A stretch of DNA of 64,000 nt from Planctomycetota bacterium. Its GTDB lineage: Bacteria; Planctomycetota; JAJSAM01; JAJVHW01. Positions 14,304 through 22,705 of the stretch are shown piece by piece. The stretch covers positions 1,952,001 through 2,016,000 of the forward strand of contig CBDFJG010000004.1 of NCBI GenBank assembly GCA_965248445.1. The letters run 5' to 3'. The number at the start of each line of letters is the position of its first letter. Positions within the stretch are counted from its first letter, which is position 1. The notes under the pieces are model-generated. The model was given only the letters and a program-made list of their open reading frames with translations, was not told the origin of the DNA and ran no database searches. The position numbers and the translations under genes were made by a program.

Positions 14304-17300
14304 CTAGAATGTTCCCTGGTTGATGCGACTCAAATACGTTGCCTGCCATTGGCTACCGTTCGTGAGTCTCTTCCGCATTTCCCAGACAGAGATGGGCCTT
14401 GAGCATCCGCAAGAACAGTAGATCGGATCGAAGATATCGTAGAAATCCTCGATATCCTCGTCTGACGCGCCCGCTGGGTGCTTCGAGTTATTCTCCTTCG
14501 ACTTGTTCGCCTTGATCATCGCCTGCAAGCGCGCGCGAGTATTCTTGGTCACCTGCGCGTGGCTGTCGGGTTTCGCCTTCTTGTTGTTCTTGTGATGCTC
14601 GTCTTCGTGAAGTCCTGCCACGAATACGTCCCAGAACGCCTCGCCGAAGCAGGGGCAGAAGGCGTCGGGATCTGGCATGTCCAGGCGAATCTTGTTCGTG
14701 GTCGGATCCGTCTCGCCGGCGGCGGCGCCTCCATGCCCCCCAGATGGCGGCGACTCCGGCCCGTACCCGGACGTGTCGTCGGCGCTTCCGTCGTCGAGTC
14801 CATCGTCACCCATCTGCTTGATCAGACCGTCAATCACTTTCATAGCCTTCTTTGCCGCCTGGTCATTGTCTGCCTGAGACGCATCGTCCAGCCCCATTGC
14901 GTCTGTACGACGCACGGGGGAATTCGAAGCGTACATGTACAGGCTCGGTCCATCCGCATATCCGGTCGCGTCACGCTGCACGAACCTCCGCAACTCCGCC
15001 GAGTACGCCCGCGCCCGGTAGTGGTACAATCCGCTCTCCTCGTCCATCCGCCTCCCGGTGAACATCCACGGGTTTTCGATCTGCGATGAGGTCACTGAGC
15101 CGCCGTTGATGTCCGAGATCGCGACCGTCCCGTACGGGTCGTAGCTGTAGCTCTCGACCACAGCCTCGTCGGGATCCGTGACGTGCGTGACCGACCCCAC
15201 GAGCTGCCCGTGGTAGTAGAAGCGCTTGAGCTCCGTGGTGTTGCTGTCGCTGTCCACGTCGGCGACGTCCGGCGCTTCCATCACCGCCGGATCGTCGATC
15301 TTGTCACTGTAGGCGTACAGGCGAAGCAGATCGGTTCCGTCGTACTCCTCAATCACGCTGTTGCCGTCATAGATGTAGCGCGACGTGTCGCTGCCGACGG
15401 TCTTCTTCGTGCGTCGGCCGCGGCCGAGCGCGTCGTACTTGTACTCGCCGAGCACGGCAGAGTCGCTCTTGCGCGTCACCTTGAGGAGGTGGTTGTGGGC
15501 GTCGTAGGCGTAGGTGTTGGTGCCGTCGTCTGTGAGGTTGCCGCTGGCGTCGTAGGTGTGCGTCGTGCCGCCGACGGCCGTGTACTCGTTGACGGCGTTC
15601 GACGTGTAGCTGGTCGTCGTCGCACTTCCGCCGTAGGGCGTCACCACGTAGGACGTCAGGTTGAAGACATCGTCCATGTTGTAATCGCGCTTCTCGTCGT
15701 ACGTCTCGGTGCCGGGGTTGGCGAGTTCGTTCGCCGGATCCGCCACCGCCATCAGGGTCTTCGTCAGACGGTTCGCCTGGTCGTAGGTGTACAGTTCGCC
15801 GGCGCCTGACTCGTGGCCTCGTGCCTCGTAGAGGGGGTTCGAGTTCGCGTCCCACGCGTAGTCGAACGACGCGAACTCCGGGCTGCTCGAATCCTCGTGC
15901 GCGATCTCGACGATGCGGCGGTAGCCGTCGTAGCCGACCGTCGTGGTCGTGCCGTTCCCGAAGGTGACCGTGTCCCGTCGGTGGTGCCGGCCGATCACGC
16001 CGAAGGACACGATCGAGGTGTCCGTCTTGTCGTCCACCTCCATCAGGCAGCAGACCTCGTCGTAGGTCCGCCGCGCCTCGAACGTTGAGGGGTATGTCAC
16101 TCTGGTCTTGTTGGACTCCGCGTCCCACGTGTACGTGACGGTCTTCGCCTCGCTGCCCAGTGGATTGCTGCCCTGCTTCTCGGTCAGGACGCGCGAGAGC
16201 GAGTCGTATGTGAGCTGCACGATGGCGTCGTTGTCTTTGGCCTCGGTCAGACGGTTGAGGCCGTCGTAGGCGAAGTCCTCGTCGGTGTCGCCGAGGACGC
16301 CAGTGCCCTTGGTGATGTCGCGGGCGATCAGACGGTCGAGATCGTCGAAGTCCTGGTCGAACTCGGTGCCGTTCTGATCGATGATCGTCGTTGCGTTGCC
16401 GTTCGCATCGAGACTGAGCGTGACCACGCCGGAGTCGGCGTAGGTGACTTCCTCAAGGCGGTTCATGAGGTCGTAGTCGTACTGCGTCTCGTTCCCCGCG
16501 TCGTCGCGATAGACGATCACGTTGTTGTGGATGTCGAAGTCCCACTCGATGTCAAGGGACGCGCCCGACCCCAGATCGACGCTCTTCTTCGTGATGCGTG
16601 CCAGGCCGTCCGAGAACAACTCCGTGTCGGTGCCATCCGGCTCGATCTCCACTCTCGCCACGCTGAGCGCGTCGAGCTTCCACTCCGTCACGAGACTGTT
16701 CGCGGAGTTCGCGGCGTCGATGCGCTTCTGCGTCCTCCTTCGGTTCAAGGCGTCGTAAGTGAACTCCGTCTCGTAGACCTCGCTGACCGTCGTGCCGTGC
16801 AGGAACTCAGTCTCCTTGATCTCCGTGACGTTCCCGTTCGCATCGAGCGTGTACTCCTCCAGGTTGCCGATGGCATCGGTGTCCTTCGTGAGCCGGCCCG
16901 CGCCGTCGTAGACACGAGTCGTGTCGTATCCCCGCCGGTCGTTGAGCACCGTGGTGAGGCCGCGCCTGTCGAGTGTCCTCGTCCGATACAACCAGGTGTC
17001 CGGCGTTCCTTGGAGCACCGCCTCGCTCTGCCAGAGCCGGTTGATCTCGTCGTAGTTGCGCTTCTCGTGGGCGAGGAGGTCGTCTGCCGACGGGTCGTTG
17101 TCCTGCCAGCTCTTGCGTTCGGTCAGGTTGTTCGCCTTGTCGTACGCGAGCTGCGTGTAATGGCCCAACGCGTTGGTGCCTTGGGTGGGCCGATCGAAGA
17201 GGTCGAACATCGCTGTCGAACTCTTGCCGCGAGGGTTCGTCACGGAGGTCCGATTGCGGTTCCCGTCGTAATCGATGGTCGTCGTGGCGGCGATGTGTCC

Positions 17301-19502
17301 CGTTCCGGGGTCGGCGACGCGCTTCTGCAGTAAGTCGCGCTCGTCGAACGTGAACTCGACACGTACGTCACCGCGCTGCATGGCGGACCGGTTGTCGTTC
17401 GGGTCGTACTCGAACGTCGTGGTGCGAGTCGTCGTGGCGGTGATGTCCTCGACGGCGGACGCTAGGTCGTTCTCGACGGTGTACGTGTAACTCGCCTCCC
17501 ACCACTGGGGAGTGGAGCTCCAGATGCCCAAGTGATCGATGTTCTTGATCTCGCGCTTGGTGACATTGAGGTTGCCGTCGTAGGTCAACTTCGTGATGTA
17601 GCCCAGAGCGGTGGGGGCGGCAACCTGCGTGACGTTGCCGTACCGCTCGACCGTCAGGTTGGTCGTGTTCCCGCGGGGATCCGTGATCGCATTGACGTCA
17701 CCCCAGTTCTCGTAAGCGATGGTGGTCAGGAGTCCCAGTCCGCCTTGATCGACGGTCTTCGTCGACAGGAGAGCCTTCGTGTTGCCGGTTGCGAAGTACG
17801 TGTACGCCGTCACGTACCCCTCACCGTCGGTGAAGGAAGCCACTGTGCCGTCCGTGTTGAACGTGTAGCTGTTCGTGATGGTCACGTTCGGCGTGAGGTT
17901 CGTGATCGTCGGGAACGTGATCCTCGTCGGCTGGCCCGCCGCGTTCAGGGTGTACGTCGTCGTGTTCCCTCGACCGTCCGTGTAGCTCGTGACGCCGTAG
18001 TTCTTGGTCGAGTCATAGGCCCAAGTGTTGACGATGTCGTTCGTCGCACTGTCGGCCGCCGTCATGTCCTCCTTGTGGCGCCGCTTGGTTGCGAGCTTCG
18101 CCGTGTTGAGCGTGTATTTGAGCCCGTTGCCACGCGGGTACGTCACGGTGAGGAGATAGCCGGCGGAGTCGTGCGCCCACTTGGTCGTGTAGTCACCCTC
18201 GCCGGTCCGCACGCCGCGGTTCGTCTCCTCGACGACCTGCGTGGGAGTGAGCGTCGAGGCGCTGTAGGTCCACACCTCACGGTTGCCGGCGCGGTCGGTC
18301 ACGGTCGTCTGGTTCGTGAGCGGCGTGTACGCCAGCGTCATCGTGTCCGTGCCGCCGATCGTCTGCACGGTGACGCGGTCCGTGCCGTCGTACTGATTAT
18401 TGATGTGCGAATTCCCGCGGCCGTCGATCTCCGCGATCATGTTGCCGTTCAGCGCCGCGGTGGCGGAGCCGTTGATGTAGAGGAACTGCGTCCAGACGCC
18501 GCCGGGGAAGCTCGTCGTCGGCGGCCCCTCGATGCGCATGAGCTGCGTCTTGATGTTGTAGTGAAGTGTCCACGCGGCTCCATCGGCCGTCGTAATCGAC
18601 ATCAGGCGCCCGGTCGCCGGGTAGTACGCCAGCGTGTGCGCCAGCCCGCGGCTGTCGCCGATCATCGTGATCTGGCCGGCGGGGTTGCGCGCGTAGTTCG
18701 TCGTGTTACCGAACGCGTCCGCGACCGACGTGAGCCAGCCGTTCGAGTAGGTCCACGTGCCGCCCTCGGGGAGCGTTCGTACGTAGCCGCCAGGGGTCGC
18801 CGTGAGGGTGTCCCGCAGGCCGACCGGTGTCGTGTAACCGACGCCGTTGAACAGGTACGTGCTGAGGACGCCTGTCTCCTTGAGGATCGCGACGTCGCCG
18901 GCGCCGTTGACGGTGTAGCTAGAATCGAGCACGCTGCCCATGCCGTACCCGACTGAGCTGTCGAACGCGCTCTGCGAGTTGTAGGTCAGGGCGATGCCGG
19001 ATTCGCTCGTGCTGGCCACCATCATCGTGGGGGCGTTCGAGACCGAGCAGCACTCCGGCATCAGGATCATCGGGCGGACGCCGCGGGATCGGCCGATCGT
19101 GTAACGCCGCGCGAACGCGCCGTTGTGAATGGCCAAGCTGCGCCCCACGAACGCCGACTGCCCCGAGGGCGCAAAGGGCTCCGCCGTCATGAAACCGGCG
19201 AGCGTCGGGACCGTGGCTCCGTCGTGCACACCCGGGCCACCGTCGAGCGGGGACGGGTCGATGAGATCGAGCAAGGTGTCGAAGTCCGAGTCGGGGTTGT
19301 TGGGATCGGTGCCCGTCTCGAACACCTCCTTGAAGTCGTTCCAGCCATCGCCGTCGCTGTCGGCGGCTGCCGGGTTGGTGCCGAGGATCGTGCCCTCGAA
19401 GACGTCGTCCAGTCCGTCGCCGTCGGTGTCCGCGGCGAACGCCGCTGTCGTCCAACCGAAGAGCAGCACGGCAGCCAGCGAGAACGCGTGCTTCGTCCGC
19501 AT
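14304..19502 (-). CDS. Sec-signal RHS/YD-repeat protein with N-terminal DxDxDG (TSP3-like) Ca-binding repeats and C-terminal HExxH domain
   Basis: Start MRTKHAFSLAAV at 19502 (TGATG-coupled); DTDGDGLDD/DSDGDGWND; YD repeats; RHS core FTGRRMDEESGLYHYRARAY...NSPVRRTDAMGL; LHEDEHH at ~14592-14612. Confidence 0.92.
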   Translation of the reverse strand: MRTKHAFSLAAVLLFGWTTAAFAADTDGDGLDDVFEGTILGTNPAAADSDGDGWNDFKEVFETGTDPNNPDSDFDTLLDLIDPSPLDGGPGVHDGATVPTLAGFMTAEPFAPSGQSAFVGRSLAIHNGAFARRYTIGRSRGVRPMILMPECCSVSNAPTMMVASTSESGIALTYNSQSAFDSSVGYGMGSVLDSSYTVNGAGDVAILKETGVLSTYLFNGVGYTTPVGLRDTLTATPGGYVRTLPEGGTWTYSNGWLTSVADAFGNTTNYARNPAGQITMIGDSRGLAHTLAYYPATGRLMSITTADGAAWTLHYNIKTQLMRIEGPPTTSFPGGVWTQFLYINGSATAALNGNMIAEIDGRGNSHINNQYDGTDRVTVQTIGGTDTMTLAYTPLTNQTTVTDRAGNREVWTYSASTLTPTQVVEETNRGVRTGEGDYTTKWAHDSAGYLLTVTYPRGNGLKYTLNTAKLATKRRHKEDMTAADSATNDIVNTWAYDSTKNYGVTSYTDGRGNTTTYTLNAAGQPTRITFPTITNLTPNVTITNSYTFNTDGTVASFTDGEGYVTAYTYFATGNTKALLSTKTVDQGGLGLLTTIAYENWGDVNAITDPRGNTTNLTVERYGNVTQVAAPTALGYITKLTYDGNLNVTKREIKNIDHLGIWSSTPQWWEASYTYTVENDLASAVEDITATTTRTTTFEYDPNDNRSAMQRGDVRVEFTFDERDLLQKRVADPGTGHIAATTTIDYDGNRNRTSVTNPRGKSSTAMFDLFDRPTQGTNALGHYTQLAYDKANNLTERKSWQDNDPSADDLLAHEKRNYDEINRLWQSEAVLQGTPDTWLYRTRTLDRRGLTTVLNDRRGYDTTRVYDGAGRLTKDTDAIGNLEEYTLDANGNVTEIKETEFLHGTTVSEVYETEFTYDALNRRRTQKRIDAANSANSLVTEWKLDALSVARVEIEPDGTDTELFSDGLARITKKSVDLGSGASLDIEWDFDIHNNVIVYRDDAGNETQYDYDLMNRLEEVTYADSGVVTLSLDANGNATTIIDQNGTEFDQDFDDLDRLIARDITKGTGVLGDTDEDFAYDGLNRLTEAKDNDAIVQLTYDSLSRVLTEKQGSNPLGSEAKTVTYTWDAESNKTRVTYPSTFEARRTYDEVCCLMEVDDKTDTSIVSFGVIGRHHRRDTVTFGNGTTTTVGYDGYRRIVEIAHEDSSSPEFASFDYAWDANSNPLYEARGHESGAGELYTYDQANRLTKTLMAVADPANELANPGTETYDEKRDYNMDDVFNLTSYVVTPYGGSATTTSYTSNAVNEYTAVGGTTHTYDASGNLTDDGTNTYAYDAHNHLLKVTRKSDSAVLGEYKYDALGRGRRTKKTVGSDTSRYIYDGNSVIEEYDGTDLLRLYAYSDKIDDPAVMEAPDVADVDSDSNTTELKRFYYHGQLVGSVTHVTDPDEAVVESYSYDPYGTVAISDINGGSVTSSQIENPWMFTGRRMDEESGLYHYRARAYSAELRRFVQRDATGYADGPSLYMYASNSPVRRTDAMGLDDASQADNDQAAKKAMKVIDGLIKQMGDDGLDDGSADDTSGYGPESPPSGGHGGAAAGETDPTTNKIRLDMPDPDAFCPCFGEAFWDVFVAGLHEDEHHKNNKKAKPDSHAQVTKNTRARLQAMIKANKSKENNSKHPAGASDEDIEDFYDIFDPIYCSCGCSRPISVWEMRKRLTNGSQWQATYLSRINQGTF

Positions 19503-20002
19503 CAGCGGCCCCCTTCCCCGAACAGGCCACCGCGGATCGCGAGCGCCATGCCCTGGAGACGCTGGTTCGTGCCCGCCTTCGCGTTCACGTACGAGCTCAC
19601 GTCCTTCCACTTCTTGCTGTCGGACTTCTCTGCGCGACACCAGGCAGCGAGCGCGGCGCACCGCACGCCGTCGGTCCGCTTGGTGTCCTCGTAGATGATC
19701 TTCAGCTTCGCGCGAGCGCCTGAGTAGTCGCCGCGACCGATCGTGGCGATCGCCATCGCGGCCAGCTTGTCGTCCTTGCTCGCCGCCATGGCAGTAAGCG
19801 CGCTCCGAGACGCGCCGGTGCCGATGCCCAGAAGCTCCTCCATCAGCGCCGCGCGACGCGAGACACCGATCGGCGACTCGCAGATCGTTCGGAGGCGTGT
19901 GACCCTCTCGTTGCTCGGGCCAGAGTGCGCCGTGGCTGACAGCGCCACGGCCACCAGGGCAAGAAGTCCGAACGCGAGATTGCGTGAACGAGACCGGGTC
20001 AT
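19502..20002 (-). CDS. small secreted HEAT-like protein translationally coupled to RHS
   Basis: GGAGG RBS, signal peptide, helical repeats (GVRCAALAAW); stop overlaps RHS ATG. Confidence 0.75.
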   Translation of the reverse strand: MTRSRSRNLAFGLLALVAVALSATAHSGPSNERVTRLRTICESPIGVSRRAALMEELLGIGTGASRSALTAMAASKDDKLAAMAIATIGRGDYSGARAKLKIIYEDTKRTDGVRCAALAAWCRAEKSDSKKWKDVSSYVNAKAGTNQRLQGMALAIRGGLFGEGGR

Positions 20003-20029
20003 CGGAAGTTCCTCCATTTGCTGCGCTCG

Positions 20030-20574
20030 AGGTCCCGCAGGACCTCGGGCACGGACTCGCGCACCCGCCGGTGGAAGCTCCTCGCAGAGCACGACGGCAG
20101 TCGATGCCCCAGCGACTTGACGGCGCCGCGTGCGGCATTCACGAGTTTCGTGCGCGCAGAGACCACGCGCTCCCGCGCGCGCAGCAGCGCCATGTCGGCC
20201 TGCATGGACTCGCCCCGGTGGACCACCGGATGCAGCAGGCCGGGATGCCCCGCACCGAGCTGCGCCAGCACCAGTGCGTCGCGCCGATCCGTCTTCTTCG
20301 GCGAGTCCCAGATCGCTCGCAGCCGTCGCGCGTCCGCCACGATCACGTCGTGGCCGTGGGACGCGACCAGCCGGCTGATCCACGGAGAGTGCGTCCCGCT
20401 CTCCATCACCACCTTGGACCGCTCCGTCTGCTCGAAGAACTTGCCGAGCGCCTTGCGTGTCGCCCCGACCCGTCCCTCCCCGACGACCTCCCCCGTCTTG
20501 CGGTCGAGCATGCAGACATGCACCACGCGATCACCCAGATCCATCCCGATCACCAAGCGTGTACCCTTCGCCAT
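20030..20574 (-). pseudogene. IS110-family recombinase, 3'-truncated (RuvC-like DEDD domain and part of coiled coil only)
   Basis: IGMDLG, VMESG, KTDRRDA motifs; GAGGAGG RBS; no C-terminal Tnp domain. Confidence 0.88.
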
Positions 20575-20664
20575 AGCCGGTTCCTCCTCGGGCGCAGAGC
20601 CCGTTTGTGACTCGGAAAACCGCTACGGGTTACACCGAGGCAGGGACCGGCCTTCTTGTATGAC

Positions 20665-20880
20665 GTCCACTCATGCCCGCGACCTACGGTGGACAGAGAT
20701 CGACGAGAGCCGGGAGAGGGTCGCCGCGGCCTTCACGAGGCGCAGTCCTCGGAGATGAGATTGGCGCCCTCGACCGGCGACCCACGCTCGGACGGGATCC
20801 TGAGGCGCGCAGACGCGCGTCCTCGCATGAACAAGGATGAGTACGGTCGCCGGCTCCGAGGCTCCCGGTCCTCCTCGTCG
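20665..20880 (+). ncRNA. IS110 bridge RNA (predicted)
   Basis: Target loop: LTG CGGCCTTC 20727-20734, hairpin CGAGG/CCTCG, RTG GAGATGAG 20752-20759. Donor loop closed by perfect stem CCGGCGACC 20774-20782/GGTCGCCGG 20845-20853: LDG GACGGGATC 20791-20799, RDG ACAAG 20831-20835. RNA ends are approximate. Confidence 0.85.
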
Positions 20881-20898
20881 CATGACAGGAGGTGCACG

Positions 20899-22098
20899 AT
20901 GCGCTACGCGGGGATAGACATCGCTTCGAAGAAGCACGTCGTGGCGGTGATGGACGAGGACGAAGAGATCCTGGTGCGGCCCACCGCCTTCGGTGAGGAC
21001 GCACAGGGCTACGAGGAGCTCTTCGAGTTGCTCGGCGTCCCTCGAGACGTGCTCGTGGCCTTGGAGGCGACCGGGCACTACTGGCGCAACTTGGCGGCGG
21101 AGCTTCTCTCGCGCGGTTTCGCCATGGTGCTGATCAATCCGCTGCGGACCCACCGCTTCGCCGGCGAGGACCTGCAGCGGACCAAGACCGATGCCATCGA
21201 CGCCCTCGGGCTCGCCCGGTTCGCTCGCCAGAAACGCCCGGAGCCCACGCGGCTGCCCGACTCCGGCACCGAGGAACTGCGCGAGCTCGTCAGACTCAGG
21301 GATCGCGTGGTCCAGGACTTTGGAGACCGGGTCCGCCGGCTTCACCGCTTGGTGGACCTGGGTTTCCCGGAGTTCACACGCCACGTCCGCACCCTCGACA
21401 GCGAACTCGCCACGGCGCTGCTCAACCGCCATCCCACCGCGCAGGCCTTTGTGGGTGTCTCGGTCAAGCGACTCGCCGCGCTCCGTTACGACGGACGTCA
21501 CCGAGTCGGGCGGCAGCTTGCCCAAGACCTGGTCCGTGCAGCCAAGTCGTCCGTGGGCCGCCACCACGCCGAGGCCTATCGCACTCAGGTCCGGTACGCC
21601 TGCGAGGATCTGGACTTGCTGCGCCGGCGCCTTCGCGACTTGGAGAAGCTGATCGGGGGAACCCTGGAGCACCACGAGGTCGGCAAGCTCCTCACGACCA
21701 TCGACGGCATCGGGCCACAGACCGCCGCGCGGCTCGTCGCGGAGCTGGGCGACATCACTCGTTTCCGCGACGCCAAGGCGCTGGCGTCATACATCGGGGT
21801 CGTCCCGGCACTCAAGCAGTCCGGACGCAACCAGGGCCAACGCGCCGCCATCACCCGCATCGGGCACGCCCGGCTGCGCAGGGCCCTGTGGATGCCCGTC
21901 CTGACCGCGGTGCGCAGGAACCCCTGGCTGCGCGCCTTCTACGAACGGCTTCGGTCCCAGGGCAAGCTCCCGAAGGTCGCCCTCGTCGCGTCCATGCGAA
22001 AGCTCCTGGTCGCCGTCCACTGGGTGGCTCGAAACAAACAGCCCTTCGTCCCCCGGCCCACACCCGTGGCCACGTCGGCCACGCAGGTGCCCGCATGA
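20899..22098 (+). CDS. IS110-family bridge recombinase (intact, 399 aa)
   Basis: AGGAGGT RBS; GID, LEATG, KTDAIDA (DEDD); GIGPQTAA; catalytic QSG. Confidence 0.95.
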   Translation: MRYAGIDIASKKHVVAVMDEDEEILVRPTAFGEDAQGYEELFELLGVPRDVLVALEATGHYWRNLAAELLSRGFAMVLINPLRTHRFAGEDLQRTKTDAIDALGLARFARQKRPEPTRLPDSGTEELRELVRLRDRVVQDFGDRVRRLHRLVDLGFPEFTRHVRTLDSELATALLNRHPTAQAFVGVSVKRLAALRYDGRHRVGRQLAQDLVRAAKSSVGRHHAEAYRTQVRYACEDLDLLRRRLRDLEKLIGGTLEHHEVGKLLTTIDGIGPQTAARLVAELGDITRFRDAKALASYIGVVPALKQSGRNQGQRAAITRIGHARLRRALWMPVLTAVRRNPWLRAFYERLRSQGKLPKVALVASMRKLLVAVHWVARNKQPFVPRPTPVATSATQVPA

Positions 22099-22480
22099 GC
22101 CACGAGTCTTCCGAGCGAACTCGCGCGCGCTCCGCCGCCCCGGATTCATGCCCGAGCCGACAGGCGAAGGCGTCGCACCACCCAACCTGTCCTCGCGGCC
22201 CGCCGAGCGCGGTCCCCGCGCGCAGGCGAGGCGGGCAGCGCCAACAACGCTCTAAGAACCTTGGTCGAGAAGACGGGATCTCATCTCATCACCAACGCCG
22301 AGGACCGAGCGCGACGCGTCCCGCGGCGCCACGATCGATTTCGGGGGACTCCTCGCGACACAGGTCTGTTATCCCGGGTACGCGAGCCCGTGACTCCGGG
22401 GAGTACTACGGCGGTGCCAGTTGGGTCCCGCGTACATCCTGCCCGGCAGAGGGCCGGCTACCACGAGAGGCGGTGCGGAG

Positions 22481-22705
22481 ATGAGCGGAAGATGGATCGG
22501 AGCCTTGCTGTGCGTCGCGACGATGGCTCTTCTGGCGGGTTGCCAGTGCACGGGTTCATCCACCAAGTCGGACCATCCGACGCGGACGGAACACCCGAAG
22601 GCTGCGCAGGAGCACCCGGCGGGGACCGAGCACCCGGCGGGGACCGAGCACCCCAAGAAGTCGGAGCATCCCAAGAAGTCGGAGCACCCGGACCACCCGA
22701 AGTGA
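22481..22705 (+). CDS. small lipoprotein with tandem EHP repeats
   Basis: Lipobox LAGC; (x3)EHP repeats encoded by 18-bp tandem repeats; GTGA-coupled to transglutaminase. Confidence 0.75.
   Translation: MSGRWIGALLCVATMALLAGCQCTGSSTKSDHPTRTEHPKAAQEHPAGTEHPAGTEHPKKSEHPKKSEHPDHPK
22609..22700 (+). repeat. 18-bp coding tandem repeats
   Basis: GAGCACCCGGCGGGGACC x2 then GAGCAYCCCAAGAAGTCG x2. Confidence 0.85.

Follow-up and report, generated by a model that had tools for sequence, protein, structure and literature searches.

An IS110-group element with bridge-RNA guides matching the left sub-terminal repeat of an IS1111-group element in a Planctomycetota bacterium

The window analysed here is a stretch of 64,000 nt from a Planctomycetota bacterium; positions elsewhere in the same genome carry a prefix (C1 to C4). 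Two recombinase genes lie back-to-back at this locus, and the element carrying one of them (the guest) is inserted in the end of the element carrying the other (the host). The guest is intact (20655-22281, plus strand), is bounded by CT at 20655-56 and 22280-81, and encodes an intact recombinase of 399 aa (20899..22098, plus strand; PF01548 and PF02371) with residues D6, E56, D98, D101 and S308. The host gene (20032..20574, minus strand) is a 5′ fragment comprising codons 1-181 and the DEDD domain only (PF01548). As the preliminary description had it, this copy is 3′-truncated: it matches the C4:85578 copy to residue 181 only, where it breaks at position 20032, its 3′ part is deleted, and the reading frame continues into unrelated DNA as far as 19999. 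Beyond the truncated host (14304-20002, minus strand) come an ORF of 166 aa and a long one resembling RHS repeats; C4:387165 and C4:110847 also carry the start of the 166-aa ORF, joined there to different sequence at the same point. Upstream of the host gene, alignment of host copies delimits the inner part of a short left non-coding end (20575..20654, minus strand). At its outer edge stand 8 nt, AG-AAGGCC (20649..20656, minus strand), that form the inner side of the left sub-terminal inverted repeat and whose AG is the CT core of the guest. The remaining 10 nt of the host, a severed tip, lie on the far side of the guest (22282..22291, minus strand) and comprise the host core TG (22290-91), the ATGAG extension and the opening 3 nt of the repeat. 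Next to them lie the initial 8 nt of a terminal repeat of the IS5 family, GGCGTTGG (22292..22299, minus strand), where the host apparently inserted.

As a bridge recombinase, the guest is an ordinary member of the IS110 group. Its protein combines a DEDD RuvC-like domain with a Transposase_20 domain carrying the conserved serine, scores above the NF033542 cut-off and is homologous to the IS621 and ISCro4 structures; alignment with the host protein is confined to the C-terminal domain (32% over 132 aa). The left non-coding end (20657..20898, plus strand, 242 nt) contains the guides within a predicted bridge RNA at about 20700-20870 (alignment; fold z = -2.68), and the right end (22099..22281, plus strand, 183 nt) contains the left donor (22273-22279) and the CT at 22280-22281. 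Inspection by eye revealed no long sub-terminal repeats. A -10-like box, TATGAC, is present in the left end (20659-20664, plus strand) and a -35-like box, TTGGTC, in the right end (22261-22266, plus strand), a position occupied by TTGAC in relatives. A guest circle would place both boxes 17 nt apart (TTGGTC-17-TATGAC), forming a candidate junction promoter.

Four guides can be placed in the left end, all on the plus strand. The left target guide CGGCCTTC(A) (20727..20735) equals the left target CGGCCTT (20648..20654), which is the same in all four occupied sites of the genome, and the 8-nt right target guide GAGATGAG (20752..20759) is the complement of the core plus CATCTC. The left donor guide (20791..20799) matches the guest's own right end at 22272-22280, and the equivalent position also fits the own right end in guest relatives. 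From the sequence and the aligned relatives, the core-proximal part of the right donor guide lies at 20831..20835, as the complement of CTTGT. This order agrees with that given for IS621 in the excerpted account of PMC11208160, where target guides precede donor guides in the left end. Around the 2-nt core, the guides thus fit the guest's own target and donor. Matching on both sides, as claimed from the first inspection, is complete: 7/7 left-target bases and 8/8 core-plus-right-target bases. The exact 15-mer target is expected by chance at 0.037 sites per genome (order-4 Markov), which bears out the earlier argument against random insertion.

We examined the same guide positions in relatives (82 loci, 56 of them parsable, giving 51 unique guide pairs). 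Among 10 aligned loci the bridge-RNA scaffold was invariant and the target-guide columns were variable, and the guides varied with the flanks. The left guide matched its own flank at 4.76 of 7 positions, against 3.60 for shuffled flanks (n = 38), and the right guide at 4.80 of 6, against 2.96 (n = 46); none of 5000 shuffles reached as high a value on either side. Since matching to own flanks exceeds that to shuffled flanks on both sides, we regard the guide assignment as tested. Relatives often show 2-3 mismatches, while the match of the window guest is perfect.

Excision of 20657-22281 leaves a single CT and rebuilds GGGACCGGCCTT-CT-CATCTCATCACC. The preliminary description had proposed this restored site, and its placement in the short left non-coding end of the host, 80 nt upstream of the minus-strand start at 20574, can now be made more precise. 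Read on its reverse strand, the left sub-terminal inverted repeat of the host gives the sequence of the guest's target guides, 10 nt inside the host end; the core (20655..20656) falls within this 11-bp repeat (host orientation: ATG|AG|AAGGCC), and the right target extends into the host's terminal extension, so that the severed tip doubles as the right target. Because the guest core is the AG within the left repeat, the true left end of the host lies beyond the guest, at 22291, and hence outside the interval 20574-20648 against which this boundary was checked. After guest insertion 6/11 repeat bases are regenerated, and the spacing between tip and gene is 1.6 kb.

The host had been named an IS110 element, an assignment that its sub-terminal repeats correct: it belongs to the IS1111 group. 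In the part of PMC11187229 consulted, this group is defined by sub-terminal repeats of 11-13 bp with extensions of 7 bp on the left and 3 bp on the right. In the C1 copy after in silico removal of the guest, as in relatives, we found an 11-bp repeat with a 7-nt left and a 3-nt right extension. The C1 host encodes 347 aa (range of the group, 330-350 aa), scores above the NF033542 cut-off and has about 300 nt of non-coding sequence downstream, in which target guides could be read by eye with the top-strand match first, in the same layout as in relatives. The window copy is devoid of a right end, and the partner of its repeat, GGCCTTCTCAT, is found at the right end of the C1 host (C1:586092). Among 400 other genomes of the same phylum, 24 contain host relatives, with paired repeats of the ATGAGAAGGCC type at either end. 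These ends follow a strongly conserved plan: a core dinucleotide (AG, AC or GG, repeated at both ends at the same offset), a 5-nt extension and the 11-bp ATGAGAAGGCC-type repeat; on the right side the inverse repeat lies 3 nt from the end, and a long non-coding region follows the gene.

Other features of the host family were observed along the way. The host leader (20575-20652, minus strand) folds with bases just inside the repeat paired to the ribosome-binding site (z = -2.76), and its long stem is kept whole by the guest insertion. In three host relatives (L092, L117 and L110) the target rebuilds a palindrome-like GGGGAC-AG site, and in two others (L095 and L102) host ends occur in tandem, as if the element re-inserted beside or into itself. 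Orphan host right ends of about 100 bp are found amid IS66-type sequences at C2:855576 and C3:295664, with identical surroundings in both places.

To what extent the guest's target is shared was examined in 28 host-family loci from other genomes (some genomes contributing more than one locus, and one locus being devoid of a left end). Left ends lay within 2 mismatches of the 15-nt target in 18 of the 28 loci and right ends in none, no right end having fewer than 3 mismatches. By sequence comparison, left and right host ends are told apart by the extended right guide of the guest. As one guide fits so many left ends, the reach of a single element could extend to suppressing, or riding, an entire IS1111 subgroup.

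The genome contains four guest copies, 99.9-100% identical (0-1 base different from the window copy), and comparison of their flanks, of three outer kinds, placed all four at the same base, the CT core inside the host repeat. A guide aimed at the terminal region of a relative, as initially suggested, is what every copy displays. PF01548 matches number eight, four guests and four hosts, and every host gene carries a guest. The host genes are of two types differing in about 22% of columns (145/642 between the window and C1 hosts). A guest-free left end of a third host type, with a single CT, was found at C4:1674409. No other empty CT-core site of the 5.4-Mb genome comes within 1 mismatch, so that the proposed search for the target ended at a host-type left end; the same 1-mismatch variant is occupied at C1. 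No exact empty 15-mer was found in this genome, and the ten 2-mismatch sites are all empty. The empty C4:1674409 and occupied C1 sites share 1375 bp of outer flank, and their comparison thus fixes the insertion point and excludes duplication beyond CT.

This shared flank is itself a duplication (C1:579090-580464 and C4:1674417-1675794), bounded at C1 by the guest and by a truncated IS, presumably IS1595-like. It may record an event that was one-ended or replicative. In the accessible part of 10.1101/2025.10.25.684509 a pathway of copy-out and direct transfer is described, and to see in it the source of the duplicated C1 flank would be speculation.

At C1 the right junction joins the guest to a third-type tip on a different host body. 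With the empty allele surviving at C4:1674409, this different tip requires a second guide-directed event, and its combination with another host body indicates that copies were reshuffled. There are thus at least two independent guide-directed junctions among the four copies, and their number may be as low as two. The host copies are mosaic and about 55 identical bases adjoin the guest, so recombination could have spread one insertion. Divergence between the C1 and C3 hosts was discarded as a measure of independent insertion, 27 of 36 differences falling in the last 100-column bin, and an imperfect repeat at the right end of the C3 host was likewise rejected as probably flanking coding sequence after truncation. 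None of the four hosts is whole: each is truncated, interrupted or chimeric. Two of the four guests are interrupted too in this IS-rich genome, so host damage is weak evidence. The IS load is very high, one IS66 element alone being present in about 30 identical full-length copies.

The hosts are themselves located in the ends of other elements. The window and C3 hosts abut the IS5-family terminal repeat, with the same 8 nt and a different outer flank at C3; the parent of this repeat family is an IS5 element at C3:320391-321477. Short non-coding derivatives of about 130 bp carry the terminal repeat of this parent (for example C4:1674063-1674195). An integron attC nature of GGCGTTGG was rejected, since this inward-facing repeat has its parent in an IS5 element. 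The C1 right flank and the C4:85660 left flank together rebuild an IS66 end motif with 47 matches in the genome. The host RNA region contains a 9-nt exact complement of the former, located before a 7/9 match to the latter (found by eye, without shuffle control). No host guide fitting the IS5 site was found; the known host target guides fit the IS66 flank. With hosts sitting in IS66 or IS5 end repeats, the locus forms a chain of three tiers.

Both junctions are crossed by unitigs of the run that holds 99% of the words of the stretch. We also compared positions 19700-22700 of the window with contigs of three other studies (runs X5, X6 and X7). The left junction is crossed, with 38 host-side bases, in X6 (20617-21135, 22 differences in about 520) and X7 (20617-20948, 6 differences in about 330); no left-junction piece was present among the matches listed for X5. 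In all three runs contigs extend 13-19 bases past the right junction, too short for bridging. A joint expected for a guest circle or an empty host was found in the contigs of none of the four runs, contigs being unable to show absence.

Searches beyond this genome were mostly negative. The guide pair gave 7 matches elsewhere in a collection of species-representative genomes, none with an IS110 gene; the right-junction pattern was found in 0 of 400 other genomes of the same phylum and gave 12 matches in viral sequences, none with IS110. No guest relative lay beside a host-type gene among 80 from metagenomes (59-72% identity), 1 from the same phylum and 11 from myxobacteria, and none of 76 readable right junctions bore the host tip, these relatives having other guides and other sites; many contigs of this sample are short, and it stops short of the closest relatives (75-93%). 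A plasmid collection returned no host match at 1e-50 and three guest matches at <60%. On these comparisons, the guest of this genome appears to be one reprogrammed lineage and its aim not a trait of the family.

The phylum of Archangium sp. (G401), which we take to be the myxobacteria, was sampled separately, sharing none of the 400 genomes with the own-phylum sample. There the right-junction pattern occurred in 4 of 401 genomes, three being decayed guest-family 3′ ends fused to an IS1111 tip; a match at L149 was dismissed as chance. A DNA search of 121 genomes added three more scars, and with the three from the pattern these make up 5 loci with unrelated flanks; in the family of G620 the pattern occurred in 4 of 208 genomes, all scars. 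These scars break the IS1111 left end at the guest's offset, and intact ends exist in the same genomes, carrying AA, not AG, at the core position. G758 and G704 contain, from a more distant IS1111 subgroup, left ends that are intact and have the same tip and the same GCAT flank. The scars are right ends only, and the pattern used to recover them included the host tip; the myxobacterial genomes yielded neither a left junction nor a guide nor an intact guest, and a left-junction pattern built for their hosts gave 18 matches in 16 of 81 genomes, like the reversed control and none with IS110. In L147 and L148 the scar adjoins a 321-residue frame, presumably resembling a nucleotidyltransferase. Judged by these sequences, the scars are a probable parallel case.

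We conclude that the target loop of the guest was very probably reprogrammed, by natural means, to the left repeat and terminal extension of an IS1111 element, and that the host is likely immobilised. The guide-target match, the exact repeated insertion and the position inside the repeat are direct observations. The loop would have been redirected to the sequence that a widespread IS1111 subgroup conserves best. By analogy with IS621, the guest would circularise, form its junction promoter and recombine at the CT core without duplication; excision is rarer than insertion for IS621 according to the portion of PMC13626964 at hand. The guest would thereby park in DNA that is harmless to the cell and that is renewed each time a host copy moves. 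An occupied host is probably immobilised, its repeat being split and 1.6 kb separating the circle-junction promoter from the gene, and precise excision of the guest would restore it. One point sits uneasily with this explanation: the empty 1-mismatch site remains unoccupied.

What occupation does to the host is a separate matter. The anatomy favours disabling or safe-site parasitism, disabling being likelier than hitch-hiking, and it is fairly probable that the guest disables most of its hosts. Cargo transport is nevertheless conceivable since the RNA-read tip of the host lies whole outside the guest, and it is intact in three of the four copies. Host and guest would then move as a 3-kb unit via the host recombinase. 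The host donor guide covaries with the extension (CCCCA/ATGGG, CCTCA/ATGAG; the C1 and C4 hosts have CCTCA), the genome is devoid of any guest-free host gene, and the diverged guests of the three other studies align through the same tip and IS5-repeat bases, over 18-19 bases only. Against such a composite, no intact host body occurs in identical form at two different sites, 6/11 bases are all that remains of the repeat, the C1 tip mismatches the guide of its own host, and the host target guides fit the IS66 flank, not the IS5 flank; we consider it possible, yet unlikely. Rather unlikely, too, is the broadest reading, recurrent RNA-guided hyperparasites, in which IS110 elements of at least two phyla were independently reprogrammed to a fixed offset of the IS1111 left end with the tip spared, the host spreading the guest as cargo in a three-tier chain of IS66/IS5 end, IS1111 and IS110. 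A target in a chromosomal repeat or gene motif merely resembled by IS1111 ends could draw on the ten empty 2-mismatch sites and on the 2-3 mismatches tolerated by relatives, but it is most improbable, since the genome has no exact empty site, the ten all lack a guest and a host-type end is the best of the empty sites. A single chance insertion with an incidental guide match, multiplied by homologous recombination, segmental duplication or mis-assembly, would suit the mosaic hosts, the flank duplicated between C1 and C4 and the repeat-rich assembly, but is already largely refuted and hardly credible given the 15/15 match, two different tips joined at the same base, unitigs spanning both junctions and the left junction spanned in contigs of other studies.

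With a guide aimed at an IS1111 end repeat and every genome copy at that base, one programmable parasite thus appears to prey on another. Bridge recombinases would then prey on each other through their guides, with the conserved IS1111 end repeats as the point of attack. The locus also offers a natural test of whether an IS1111 element with intact RNA-read donor bases still requires its sub-terminal repeat, and a warning that pipelines for IS boundaries and target logos will mis-assign nested ends of this kind.

Targeting of other mobile elements by the IS110 family is established. IS4321 and IS5075 reportedly target the terminal repeats of the Tn21 family, and IS1383 is said to target the repeats of IS1384. 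The guest resembles them in that it belongs to the IS110 family and occupies a single position within an inverted repeat of another element, and they are a direct precedent for the present host, sited in IS66 or IS5 repeats. Their victims are DDE-type and not RNA-guided; unlike these, the victim of the guest is an RNA-guided IS1111 element, and the site is a sub-terminal repeat. We found no report of an IS110 element aimed at an IS1111 end in the literature outside subscription papers, ISfinder, TnPedia and the target tables of PMC11187229 and PMC11208160. ISEc21, in the accessible text of PMC11187229, is an IS110-group element with an upstream guide RNA and a conserved target in another IS family; unlike the guest, it hits catalytic codons of IS3-family transposase genes and not the end of an IS110-family host. 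The ssr9 module of ISPpu9, as outlined in the excerpt of PMC12288879, is an IS110-related module that rides the transposition of another element, but is non-autonomous and uses the host recombinase, whereas the guest is autonomous, with its own recombinase and guide. A further likeness is with IS621 as presented in parts of PMC11208160 and PMC13626964: the guest shares a predicted left-end RNA, target guides followed by donor guides, the CT core, a candidate junction promoter and the DEDD and serine domains. It differs in its 399 aa (328 aa in IS621, matched in two separate stretches) and its 8-nt right guide, and where IS621 targets REP, the guest targets the end of another bridge element.
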